Of a stretch of DNA of 34,428 nt, positions 4,657 through 12,758 are shown one piece after another. The stretch is from a virus. Lineage: Duplodnaviria; Heunggongvirae; Uroviricota; Caudoviricetes. The DNA lies in the IMG/VR virus record IMGVR_UViG_3300035501_000580, one strand, 5' to 3'. A program made the position numbers and the translations under genes. Within the stretch, counting starts at the first letter, position 1; each line of letters starts with the position of its first letter. The notes beneath the pieces were generated by a model. The model ran no database searches and was not told where the DNA came from. It saw only the letters and a list, made by a program, of their open reading frames with translations.

Positions 4657-4669
4657 TAAATGTAACAAA
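4657..4669 (-). promoter_or_regulatory. middle-class motif TTTGTTACATTTA (kinase operon)
   Basis: Recurrent 13-mer. Confidence 0.65.
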
Positions 4670-6345: not shown

Positions 6346-7134
6346 ATGGCAAAAAAGATTTGGACATGGATAATTAACCATAGGGATATTGTTTATATCG
6401 GACTTATTGTCATAGGTTTTTTGTTTTTCCTCAATCAATGTAATAGTAGTAGTAACTTGAATAGTGAGGTAAATCGACTACAAAACAACATCTCCGCTCT
6501 TACTGACACATTAACACAATACAAAGATGAGAATGGTAAAATTATCGCTGAGAAACATGCCTATCAATTAACTCAACAGGAATTGAGAGATAGTGTTGAC
6601 CTTTTGAAAACTAAAAATAGAGAATACTTGACTTATATAAATGCAACAGTAGGTATTAGAGACACACTTGAAATACCAACATACATTGAAAGAATTGTAG
6701 ATAACACAACAACATATACAGACGCTGGAACAATCAAATTAAACCAGTCTGATACTTTTGGTAAATCAAGTAGAAATCTTTCATTAGAGATACCTTACAC
6801 ATTCGACACACAACTTAATACAGGTAATGCGAATGTTAATTTATCTCAGAATATATATGTTGAGAGTATGATAGAAAGAGATACTAAAACAGGTGAAACA
6901 TATGTAAGATTAACTTCCGACTATCCCAACATGACATTTAATTCAGGGATGGGAGTTGTGGTTACTAATGCCAATGCTTATGATAAATCACTTAGAAAGA
7001 CAAAAGGTATTGGTATTGGTATTGGTCCGAGTGTTGGTGTGTCATATGATATTATAAATCAAAAAATAGTTCCTACGGTGGGTGTTAGTGTTACACTTGG
7101 TTTCACATACACACCAAAATGGGCACAATGGTAA
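6346..7134 (+). CDS. membrane-anchored coiled-coil protein with C-terminal Gly-rich beta segment; spanin-like candidate (start revised to MAKK)
   Basis: N-terminal TM (IVYIGLIVIGFLFFL), coiled coil, C-terminal GIGIGIGPSVGVSY...VGVSVTLGFTY; late motif upstream. Confidence 0.55.
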   Translation: MAKKIWTWIINHRDIVYIGLIVIGFLFFLNQCNSSSNLNSEVNRLQNNISALTDTLTQYKDENGKIIAEKHAYQLTQQELRDSVDLLKTKNREYLTYINATVGIRDTLEIPTYIERIVDNTTTYTDAGTIKLNQSDTFGKSSRNLSLEIPYTFDTQLNTGNANVNLSQNIYVESMIERDTKTGETYVRLTSDYPNMTFNSGMGVVVTNANAYDKSLRKTKGIGIGIGPSVGVSYDIINQKIVPTVGVSVTLGFTYTPKWAQW

Positions 7135-7140
7135 AAAGAT

Positions 7141-7169
7141 AAAGGTTGAGGAAAAAATCCCCAACCTTT
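7141..7169. terminator. bidirectional terminator (AAGGTTG family)
   Basis: AAAGGTTG...CAACCTTT, flanked by A/T tracts. Confidence 0.75.
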
Positions 7170-11317: not shown

Positions 11318-11807
11318 TTATTTCTTTCTTAAACAAATAATCTGAATTATCTTCGTCAAATCCCATGTGTGACCAAAATGAAGTTGCACTGGAATCGAAG
11401 GGATCCAATTTAATATCTTTGTAGAATGACTTTGCTGACTTTTCAATATTTCTCAATAAGATTTTACCCCATTCCATACCTCGACAATCACAAGCAATTT
11501 CAAAGACTGAGATAATAAGAGTATCCTGTTGAGAATATAAACTCATCGTACATATAATATTATCACCTGATTTAATCATATACCAATGATTTTTTGAATA
11601 CCTTTTATCATTTAAGAATTTACTTGTATCCAAATCAGATGTCCATTCACTATCCTGAGTTTCTTCAAAACAAATCATAGGAAAGTTGTACGAATAGTCA
11701 TCTAAGAAAATGTTTTTAACTTCTTCCTGAGTGAGTATTTCAACTTCACAATATTCAGAGTTTTCAATACCTTCAATCAGGGTTTCTTCAAAGTCATCAA
11801 ATTTCAT
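11295..11807 (-). CDS. GNAT-family acetyltransferase
   Basis: ISVFEIACDCRGMEWGKILL (acetyl-CoA motif A), ATSFWSHMGF (motif B). Confidence 0.75.
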   Translation of the reverse strand: MKFDDFEETLIEGIENSEYCEVEILTQEEVKNIFLDDYSYNFPMICFEETQDSEWTSDLDTSKFLNDKRYSKNHWYMIKSGDNIICTMSLYSQQDTLIISVFEIACDCRGMEWGKILLRNIEKSAKSFYKDIKLDPFDSSATSFWSHMGFDEDNSDYLFKKEINETIEEN

Positions 11808-12178
11808 TACAGTTTGTCTTTAATCTGGTTCCACAAAAGGTCAGTAATCAATTCCAAGTTAGGTTCGAGTTGTTGATACACGTCGATTTTCCTTTCACGA
11901 GGGTCATCACCACTTGGCCAATCACTAACTATGAACTCCCACTCACATTTATATCGGTAAAGATAAATGAAATGTGAACGAATAAACTCCATCAAATCTT
12001 TTTTAGTCTTAATGGGTTTAGGTTTTAATGTGGATTTGTCATAGATATGGAAATTCTTCTTAGAGATGGAACCATTTGAATTGAAAATAGAACCATACAA
12101 AGAAGGCATAACATCATAACTATCAACTTCTCCATTTGCCCAGTTCTTATACAGGACATTAAATTTGAACCTCTTCAT
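11807..12178 (-). CDS. hypothetical protein, 123 aa
   Basis: ORF track; first gene after motif at 12211. Confidence 0.75.
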   Translation of the reverse strand: MKRFKFNVLYKNWANGEVDSYDVMPSLYGSIFNSNGSISKKNFHIYDKSTLKPKPIKTKKDLMEFIRSHFIYLYRYKCEWEFIVSDWPSGDDPRERKIDVYQQLEPNLELITDLLWNQIKDKL

Positions 12179-12208
12179 ATCTACGAAATTTTATATATTT
12201 ATCTTTAC

Positions 12209-12216
12209 CATAAATA
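12209..12216 (+). promoter_or_regulatory. orphan late promoter CATAAATA
   Basis: Exact motif with no downstream CDS. Confidence 0.5.
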
Positions 12217-12223
12217 TAACAAA
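12211..12223 (-). promoter_or_regulatory. middle-class motif TTTGTTATATTTA (GNAT operon)
   Basis: Recurrent 13-mer. Confidence 0.7.
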
Positions 12224-12308
12224 TAAAATTGCTGATATGTGATAGTTGCCATTTTTTAACATCCGTCAGCAGAATGAGGTGGGGTTTATATCTCACCTCA
12301 TTTAATTT
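12222..12308 (+). ncRNA. candidate late small RNA (ends approximate)
   Basis: Orphan late promoter, internal stem (TGCTGA/TCAGCA plus ATGT/ACAT), plus-strand-oriented terminator. Confidence 0.35.
12273..12302 (+). terminator. intrinsic terminator, better formed on the plus strand
   Basis: 12-bp stem using G-U pairs on plus strand, followed by T-rich run. Confidence 0.65.
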
Positions 12309-12758
12309 TTAGATAAAGTCAAATGTGGTTGCGATAACCTTATTACCCCGGATTAAAAGAAATCTAAAATCATCATACTTATCAAATATCTCCTGAATTG
12401 GTCTCTCATGTCGTTCTAAATCACCACCTTCAGTATATCCTAACTCCTGTAAATATTTCAAAGTATCTTTTGTAAATAGTTTGACCTCATCAGTTTTATT
12501 ATTCAAAGATATTAAACAAATAGGGTCATTCACATCATAAGTTTCTTTTTTACCATTACAGCCGAATTCACATTTTTTAGGATTAAAGTAAAAAAGACAA
12601 TCTTCATTTACTGGTTCTGTACTACAACTTATAATGATTTCACTTTCTGTGTCATAAAAATACCAGTCAAAAATAAGAGTATATCCTAATAGATGATTTG
12701 CTTTAAATTCGATGTCTTCTCTCATCTCTTTAATGAAATAAAAAAAATCTTTAACCAT
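12309..12758 (-). CDS. hypothetical protein, 149 aa
   Basis: ORF track. Confidence 0.7.
   Translation of the reverse strand: MVKDFFYFIKEMREDIEFKANHLLGYTLIFDWYFYDTESEIIISCSTEPVNEDCLFYFNPKKCEFGCNGKKETYDVNDPICLISLNNKTDEVKLFTKDTLKYLQELGYTEGGDLERHERPIQEIFDKYDDFRFLLIRGNKVIATTFDFI

Follow-up and report, generated by a model that had tools for sequence, protein, structure and literature searches.

This study concerns a 130-bp gap between two minus-strand genes (positions 12179–12308) of an uncultivated phage represented by the IMG/VR record IMGVR_UViG_3300035501_000580. Our analysis points to a putative transcription unit on the plus strand of this gap, which may produce a late RNA of about 88 nucleotides (nt) antisense to the 3′ tail of the upstream operon; we put the chances that this RNA is real at about even. 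Judged from sequence statistics and orthology, the junction is primarily a normal minus-strand terminator/promoter junction, to which the putative plus-strand unit would be added on the other strand. The window, by which we mean the whole 34,428-nt stretch analyzed, covers bases 124441–158868 of the 217,491-bp record (32% G+C; estimated to be about 54% complete). The phage is a T4-like giant whose lifestyle is probably virulent. Two genes from the open reading frame (ORF) list flank the gap: upstream a gene for a protein of 149 amino acids (aa; 12309–12758, −), which has weak syntenic homologues in all relatives, and downstream a 123-aa gene of unassigned function (11807–12178, −).

Results

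Layout of the putative transcription unit

The putative RNA would occupy positions 12222–12310 on the plus strand (about 87–90 nt), with its ends placed according to promoter geometry and the terminator. Just upstream lies an exact copy of the late-type (class 1) promoter motif CATAAATA (12209–12216, +), which has a predicted start near 12222. It is followed by a long imperfect hairpin (hairpin 2; 12230–12271, +), whose outer stem of 7 bp encloses inner stems and a loop of 8 nt, CCAUUUUU, and by hairpin 1 with its T-rich tail (12272–12310, +), a predicted plus-strand intrinsic terminator. By position, the putative RNA is the exact complement of the 3′ tail of the 149-aa gene, or of a transcript reading through from it.

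An initial annotation of this stretch, made from the sequence alone, had proposed a non-coding transcript of about 85 nt at this site, and all of its coordinates hold: the motif at 12209–12216 (+), an ATG-TGA-TAG at 12237–12245, and the pairing of TGCTGA-T-ATGT (12230–12240) with ACAT-CCG-TCAGCA (12259–12271). It also placed the nearest upstream plus-strand gene 5 kb away and gave it a terminator of its own; this gene indeed ends at 7134 and is followed by a two-way hairpin (7141–7169), while the next plus-strand ORF after the motif is 966 nt away. The terminator hairpin, drawn as 12 bp at 12273–12302, is present and strong, and extends to 14 bp (stem-loop 12272–12303), after which AATTTTT follows. 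The view that its G-U pairs and T tail work on the plus strand only was right as to the bias, but the T tail proved to be largely inherited. The motif had further been described as the only late motif without a coding sequence, which is true within the window but not genome-wide, where the motif also precedes tRNA genes. It was also taken to be free-standing, which overlooked a minus-strand promoter of a second class (class 2), TTGTTATATTTA at 12211–12222, with which it is interlocked.

Hairpin 1 has the stem of an intrinsic terminator, with 14 pairs, 5 of them G-C, and a loop of 4. On the plus strand, the stem ends in UUU and is followed by the tail AATTTTTAGA, which together provide a U-tract; an AA interrupts the tract, and its efficiency is uncertain. 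The hairpin folds at −19.8 kcal/mol on the plus strand (z = −6.9) and at −12.1 on the minus strand, the tail contains 6/10 T on the plus strand vs 2/10 on the minus strand, and a consensus scan (rule, at least 5 T in 8) found it terminator-like on the plus strand only. Among the strong hairpins in the minus/minus junctions of the genome, hairpin 1 alone has a plus-only T-rich tail, and it shows the largest plus-strand advantage. Two-way AAAGG...CCTTT terminators are common in the genome.

Hairpin 2 folds at −10.8 kcal/mol on the plus strand (z = −3.0) and at −7.8 on the minus strand (z = −1.6). The 96-nt plus-strand stretch has a fold z of −6.2 on the plus strand and −3.05 on the minus strand, and the 29 pairs of the window model include 5 G·U and 0 A·C pairs. 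Strand asymmetry was assessed against 1000 composition-matched shuffles, with both strands of each compared, and gave p = 0.008 for hairpin 1 and p = 0.018 for the whole RNA in the window.

Conservation in a second lineage

A first metagenome scan was empty; a second yielded the match L017, and a genome scan yielded its strain, L142. The comparison of the RNA element therefore rests on two independent lineages, the window and L017/L142. The gene order is the same in L017, and identity to the window proteins is 67% for the 178-aa protein, 56% for the 123-aa protein, and 38% for the 149-aa protein. The layout of the junction is also that of the window, with (T/C)ATAAATA, a long imperfect hairpin, and a strong hairpin with a T-run. 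L017 likewise has TTGTTATATTTA as its class 2 promoter; the plus strand carries TATAAATA there, the offset being 13 as in the window, and 34 nt upstream of that a canonical CATAAATA overlaps the start codon of the 123-aa gene.

In L017, the hairpin 2 homologue likewise combines an outer stem of 7 bp with inner stems, and its 8-nt loop, CAUUUUUU, is conserved with that of the window. Helix by helix, the outer stem is UGCUGAU/GUCAGCA in the window vs UUGUGCC/GGUACAA in L017, so that 5 of the 7 pairs are changed and all of them pair. The sole difference between L017 and L142 inside hairpin 2 turns a U-A into a U·G, a pair that is kept on the plus strand only. Four pairs of hairpin 1 are changed on both sides relative to L017, the strong hairpin of which is 10 bp long, G+C-rich, and followed by a T7 run. 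In L017, hairpin 2 folds at −13.7 kcal/mol on the plus strand (z = −2.3) and at −8.3 on the minus strand (z = 0.04), and the region as a whole has a z of −4.65 and −3.34, respectively. The strand asymmetry of hairpin 2 gave p = 0.008 in L017 and p = 0.019 in L142.

A covariance model built from the window sequence and structure scored L017 at 35.0 bits, compared with 13.5 bits for a sequence-only model. In the model-fitted three-row alignment, 85.5% of the cells pair, compared with 73.5% in shuffles, and 8 pairs are changed on both sides, compared with 2.6 expected (0/500 shuffles in both cases). Slid controls of the alignment gave 40–53% pairing and 0–2 double changes. Consensus folding based on MAFFT recovered hairpin 1 only, with the arms of hairpin 2 out of register.

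The idea of a non-coding plus-strand transcript, which is still putative, survives this comparison, in that L017/L142 have no conserved ORF at the site and their hairpins carry compensatory changes. The other possibility raised in the initial annotation, a relic of a deleted gene, found no backing, as no relative has a conserved plus-strand gene at the site. The annotation had also named an Rfam scan as a check; the window had no match at gathering or relaxed thresholds, the best relaxed scores being 6.6–17 bits against thresholds of 35–102.

The window and L017 share no conserved ORF on either strand, and small ORFs were ruled out as candidates on either strand because they are unconserved and their frames shift. 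The element is single-copy in the genome, which rules out a repeated or mobile element. A search of IMG/VR with the exact hairpin pattern gave no match, and a degenerate promoter-plus-loop pattern gave at least 118 chance matches and no homologue. Scanning the phage genome for trans targets with the complement of the hairpin 2 loop gave 12 near matches, none beyond chance, of which the closest at a start codon belongs to the late gene at window position 6346. In L017, a non-coding spacer of about 95 nt (2520–2613) separates the strong hairpin from the stop codon of the 149-aa homologue and holds 3 of the 4 regional differences between L017 and L142.

The late-type promoter motif

The motif CATAAATA occurs 11 times in the window, compared with 4.46 times expected from shuffles, and the 10 copies other than that at 12209 are each located 20–36 nt upstream of an ORF start. 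The whole genome has 53 copies. Because 40 of these are intergenic in a genome that is 91% coding, and 34 lie within 60 nt upstream of an ORF start, CATAAATA is, on its distribution, a real promoter class. The genes that it precedes include those for terminase, neck, and baseplate proteins and also those for tRNA-Leu and tRNA-Asn; a coding gene is therefore not obligatory after the motif.

The T4 late promoter consists of TATAAATA at −13 to −6 and is read by gp55/gp33 with the sliding clamp. Class 1 is similar in being a lone 8-bp A/T-rich motif about 20–36 nt before the start codons of virion genes, in a genome with T4-type terminase, clamp-loader, and Rad50-like genes. In contrast to T4, its first base is C rather than T, the TATAAATA form is unused at genes here, and the copy at 12209 has no gene. 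This copy carries the 8-bp NATAAATA of a T4-type late promoter, as an exact CATAAATA, the form present at 30 or more genes here. It does not lie 20–36 nt before a late-gene start codon; elsewhere, the motif also precedes tRNA genes. With a flank score of 0.3, this copy falls among the 31 gene-linked copies, which score −6.5 to 9.6; the flank weight matrix for late promoters is uninformative. Two guides served to place the start near 12222, the geometry of T4 and the T-A-(A/T)-A conserved at +11 to +14. A search for Sigma70_r2 found no match in this 54%-complete record, gp55 being highly divergent.

Copies of NATAAATA running antisense within genes were counted and compared with codon-shuffled genes. 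The form CATAAATA occurred 4 times vs 18.9 expected (z = −4.2, ratio 0.21), TATAAATA 8 times vs 27.4 (ratio 0.29), and AATAAATA 10 times vs 22.5 (ratio 0.44). The ratios of the 21 other one-base variants were mostly near 1 (0.2 to 2.35), and none was as significantly depleted (z ≥ −2.0). This pattern implies that selection purges stray late motifs pointing against genes, and a copy of NATAAATA probably fires wherever it is located. Since antisense copies are purged, a copy that is tolerated is likely to be active.

In the tRNA region of the genome, two CATAAATA copies (110197 and 114703) have no gene or tRNA nearby. A box AAAG(A/G)TNC(A/T)NACCGCAA is found 15–25 nt 3′ of both promoter classes in the tRNA cluster, outside the window (minus strand of G000:C1 at 74178, 110167, 114671, 117155, 117237, and 118771). 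These boxes and orphan motif copies may be further small RNAs or processing signals. At two other sites (G000:C1 20054–20095 and 176697–176746, −), the predicted CATAAATA start is within or just before the terminator hairpin of the upstream gene; a motif so placed would let late transcripts escape that terminator.

A second promoter class overlapping the late-type motif

The second promoter class was found from the contexts of class 1 copies. Its motif is TTGTTA(T/C)NTTTA, with the extended consensus tTTGTTATnTTTAnnnT(A/G). The genome has 46 copies, of which 43 are intergenic and 7 have G at position +12. With few exceptions, they are on the strand of the following gene, 4–40 nt before its start, and they are often fused to the T-run of a preceding hairpin. 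In the window, the pattern TTGTTAYNTTTA occurs 10 times, compared with 0.41 expected, and always on the minus strand (2757, 4657, 8024, 12211, 14606, 26100, 28627, 29709, 33093, and 34115). The window copies precede clamp-loader, ClpB-like, DnaJ, methylase, and RNA-repair genes. Because of its location before genes for the clamp loader, chaperones, methylase, and RNA repair, class 2 is, by gene content, an early/middle promoter class. It is conserved in L017 and in three relatives, G001–G003. Nine class 2 sites have an ATG exactly at +16, in the conserved T(A/G) step, which suggests leaderless mRNAs at these sites.

The copy TTGTTATATTTA at 12211–12222 (−) is located 32 nt upstream of the ATG of the 123-aa gene and matches all conserved class 2 positions, with T at −1, T at +15, and A/G at +16. 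The full promoter, tTTGTTATATTTAtggTA, spans 12206–12223 (−), and its predicted start at 12206 was placed from the conserved T(A/G) at +15/+16; the class 2 promoter at this junction is orthologous in the relatives. The reverse complement of TTGTTATATTTA, with N = A and a following TG, is exactly the CATAAATA at 12209–12216. The predicted starts at 12222 (+) and 12206 (−) are divergent and about 16 bp apart; therefore, two polymerase complexes cannot occupy the site together.

Back-to-back promoter pairs 6–15 bp apart, late/late or class 2/late, are also present between divergent genes (window 13129/13150 and 16474/16490; genome 27157/27176, 29882/29907, and 185534/185552). Pairs of class 2 and class 1 are located at 4657/4677, 14606/14626, and 34115/34136 in the window. 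The 12209 junction is the sole promoter pair with overlapping motifs.

Relatives without the 123-aa gene

Scans of IMG/VR with the 149-aa, 123-aa, and 178-aa proteins, together with alignments, returned G001, G002, and G003, whose terminases are 67–69% identical to that of the window phage, and the distant G004 and G005. In G001–G003, synteny is kept (GNAT-like gene, 149-aa homologue, 112-aa homologue, and divergent 178-aa gene), and the junction consists of a stop codon, one perfect hairpin, a T-run, a class 2 promoter, and the GNAT-like gene. Neither a second hairpin nor a plus-strand CATAAATA is present at these three junctions, and the covariance model of the element found no match in G001–G003. 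Hairpin 1 of the window can be aligned with that of G001/G002, and the match takes in AAAATTAA around the stop codon. This alignment makes it orthologous, by position, to the minus-strand terminator hairpin that follows the 149-aa gene. The G001 and G002 hairpins differ by one compensatory A-T to G-C change (ATGGGTGATT/AATCACCCAT at L010 1460–1490, the hairpin of G002, vs ATGGGTGGTT/AACCACCCAT at L012 1460–1490, that of G001).

Hairpin 2, the class 2 promoter, and the 123-aa gene form a unit that is present or absent together among the lineages compared; the 123-aa gene is present in L017/L142 and absent from G001–G003. The homologue of this gene in G005 has a sigma-70-like region upstream and no similar element. 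Up to and including the comparison with G001–G003, the evidence favored an ordinary minus-strand junction.

Genome context and flanking genes

Products encoded in the record include a T4-type large terminase and a gp44-like clamp loader, along with a Rad50-like ATPase, a C5 methylase, and chaperones resembling ClpB and DnaJ. The terminase is less than 40% identical to that of any GenBank phage, and its nearest relatives are from huge uncultured phages, Sphingomonas phage PAU, and Tenacibaculum phage PTm1. Among GenBank phages, the region had no DNA match and the 123-aa protein no tblastn match. Shine-Dalgarno sequences are missing at most start codons of the phage genome. ARAGORN identified 22 tRNA genes (G000:C1 73401–122914) and made a tmRNA-like call (116744–117055), which overlaps tRNA-Met and is doubtful.

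The 123-aa protein had no match in Pfam, PHROG, or PADLOC. Its family comprises 15 metagenomic homologues with invariant C-E-x-E ... W-P ... K-x-D residues. The AF2 model of the protein has a pLDDT of 86.8, and Foldseek found no convincing PDB fold match (best VIA-align Z, 4.4); the fold may be undescribed so far.

Discussion

Our analysis suggests how a late antisense RNA might operate at this junction. On the minus strand, as sequence statistics and orthology show, hairpin 1 follows the stop codon of the 149-aa gene, and the class 2 promoter TTGTTATATTTA then starts the 123-aa mRNA. On the plus strand, the late-type CATAAATA, which is back-to-back with the class 2 promoter and overlaps it, would launch the RNA of about 88 nt. 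This RNA would begin with a short 5′ tail rich in A and U, continue through hairpin 2, and end near 12308 after hairpin 1, which with its U-tract would serve as an intrinsic terminator. It would be perfectly complementary to the transcript of the upstream early/middle operon, either in its 3′ tail or in the segment reached by read-through. Transcripts of that operon probably read through into the 123-aa gene, because hairpin 1 is without a U-tract on the minus strand. Late in infection, polymerase at CATAAATA would block the interlocked class 2 promoter, and the RNA would pair with read-through transcripts entering the 123-aa gene. Together, occlusion and antisense pairing would shut the 123-aa gene off late in infection, in a manner like that of lambda OOP; we infer that this is the simplest mechanism. 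A broader claim can be made, namely that a conserved late RNA, its promoter interlocked with an early/middle promoter, acts as a temporal switch by occlusion and antisense pairing, as an OOP-like device and a new RNA family carried in one cassette with the 123-aa gene. We regard this broader claim as unlikely.

Several observations weigh against a real RNA. The start region of the 12209 copy is C-A-A-A, compared with the consensus T-A-(A/T)-A, and hairpin 2 of the window, taken alone, has no significant strand bias (p = 0.195). The late genes of L017 use CATAAATA, and its homologous motif, TATAAATA, is not the form used at genes. Unrelated terminators reach 17–26 bits with the covariance model via hairpin 1 alone, so part of the L017 score is terminator-derived; the alignment in which changed pairs were counted was itself fitted to the model, and it contains two independent lineages only. 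Because AAAATTAA is common to G001/G002, relatives that lack the RNA, the plus-strand T tail of the window is, by comparison, largely inherited sequence of the stop-codon region and not a purpose-built U-tract. Base frequencies at the 45 other class 2 sites predict 0.65 overlaps between class 2 and CATAAATA by chance, and 1 is seen; therefore, the presence of the 12209 motif can be explained without any plus-strand function, and the motif could have arisen as a by-product of the promoter on the minus strand.

These points fit a simpler explanation, an ordinary minus-strand junction only, which we consider a serious possibility, although on the doubtful side. Hairpin 1 would end the upstream operon, TTGTTATATTTA would start the 123-aa gene, CATAAATA would be accidental, and any plus-strand RNA would be harmless noise stopped by a two-way terminator. 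The class 2 promoter is beyond doubt and the 12211 copy fits it perfectly. At the same place, G001–G003 have a hairpin, a T-run, and a class 2 promoter but lack a plus-strand motif, the T tail is shared with relatives, and two-way terminators abound in the genome. However, this explanation gives no account of hairpin 2, which on the minus strand would be an untranscribed or unimportant spacer. The minus-strand fold of hairpin 2 in L017 is no better than that of shuffles, yet the plus-strand fold is kept through 5 changed pairs. It also leaves unexplained why hairpin 1 is without a minus-strand T-run in the window and has the T7 run on the plus strand in L017, and why L017 has two plus-strand NATAAATA motifs in a genome type that purges antisense copies. 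Hairpin 1 resembles two-way intrinsic terminators in that it is the positional orthologue of such a hairpin in G001/G002; unlike them, it has lost the minus-strand T-run and gained plus-only G·U pairs in the window.

It is improbable, in our judgment, that hairpin 2 serves the minus strand or acts as DNA. Its A-tract AAAAAATG (−, about −44 to −52 from the class 2 start) could be a UP-like element, or the true terminator of the minus strand could be hairpin 2 with AATTTTATTT. No part is better conserved between the window and L017 than the A-tract/loop, many class 2 promoters are A-rich 30–45 nt upstream, and a T-rich stretch follows hairpin 2 on the minus strand. A UP-like element, however, needs no stems, yet the stems are kept through changes, and as a minus-strand terminator hairpin 2 would be weak (−7.8, z −1.6, in the window and −8.3, z 0.04, in L017), compared with −12 to −20 for the working terminators of the genome.

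That the site preserves the remnant of a lost plus-strand gene, or encodes a tiny plus-strand protein, is scarcely credible. In its favor, the ATG at 12237 has normal spacing, 20 nt after the motif, the homologous ATG of L017 opens a 52-codon frame, and the window has a 27-codon TTG frame. Against it, the window ATG is directly followed by TGA and TAG, the L017 frame crosses the 10-bp G+C-rich terminator hairpin and is without a window counterpart, and the 27-codon frame does not stay open in L017. Nor does any relative carry a plus-strand gene at the site, and minus-strand micro-frames differ in reading frame between the two lineages.

The antisense RNA that we propose has parallels among known phage RNAs. 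Lambda OOP is a 77-nt cis-antisense RNA with its own promoter, pO, and its own terminator (PMC12197685). The candidate is likewise a short phage non-coding RNA with a predicted promoter and intrinsic terminator of its own, directed against the 3′ end region of the upstream mRNA; the function of OOP comes from pairing and/or promoter activity, and that of the candidate would do so too. OOP belongs to a temperate phage, acts together with RNase III, and overlaps cII at the 3′ end of its coding sequence, whereas the candidate complements only a non-coding tail up to the stop codon. In contrast to OOP, its promoter is late-type and interlocked with the promoter of the target gene itself, it comes from a T4-like phage that is probably virulent, and neither sequence nor Rfam links the two RNAs. 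CfrI is an antisense RNA of about 225 nt in the T4-like cyanophage S-PM2 (PMC12197685, citing Millard et al. 2010). In the account given there, CfrI resembles the putative RNA in being a cis-antisense non-coding RNA of a T4-like phage, in its case a lytic one, and differs in that it is longer, overlaps coding sequence (psbA and a homing endonuclease gene), has a different layout, and bears no sequence relation to the candidate. The closest parallel in logic is OOP, and in phage type it is CfrI. Even lambda continues to yield new small RNAs (bioRxiv 10.1101/2024.10.31.621285). The candidate, which is plausible and compact, would be a new RNA family of a known kind.

Rfam shows no non-coding RNA from this phage lineage. 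To our knowledge, few non-coding RNAs are known from virulent phages. If the RNA is real, the junction would be a compact case of two temporal promoter classes on the same 14 bp, on opposite strands, with an RNA product; if not, it would be an ordinary terminator/promoter junction. The promoter grammars CATAAATA and tTTGTTATnTTTAnnnT(A/G), together with the antisense purging of late motifs, help to annotate such genomes.

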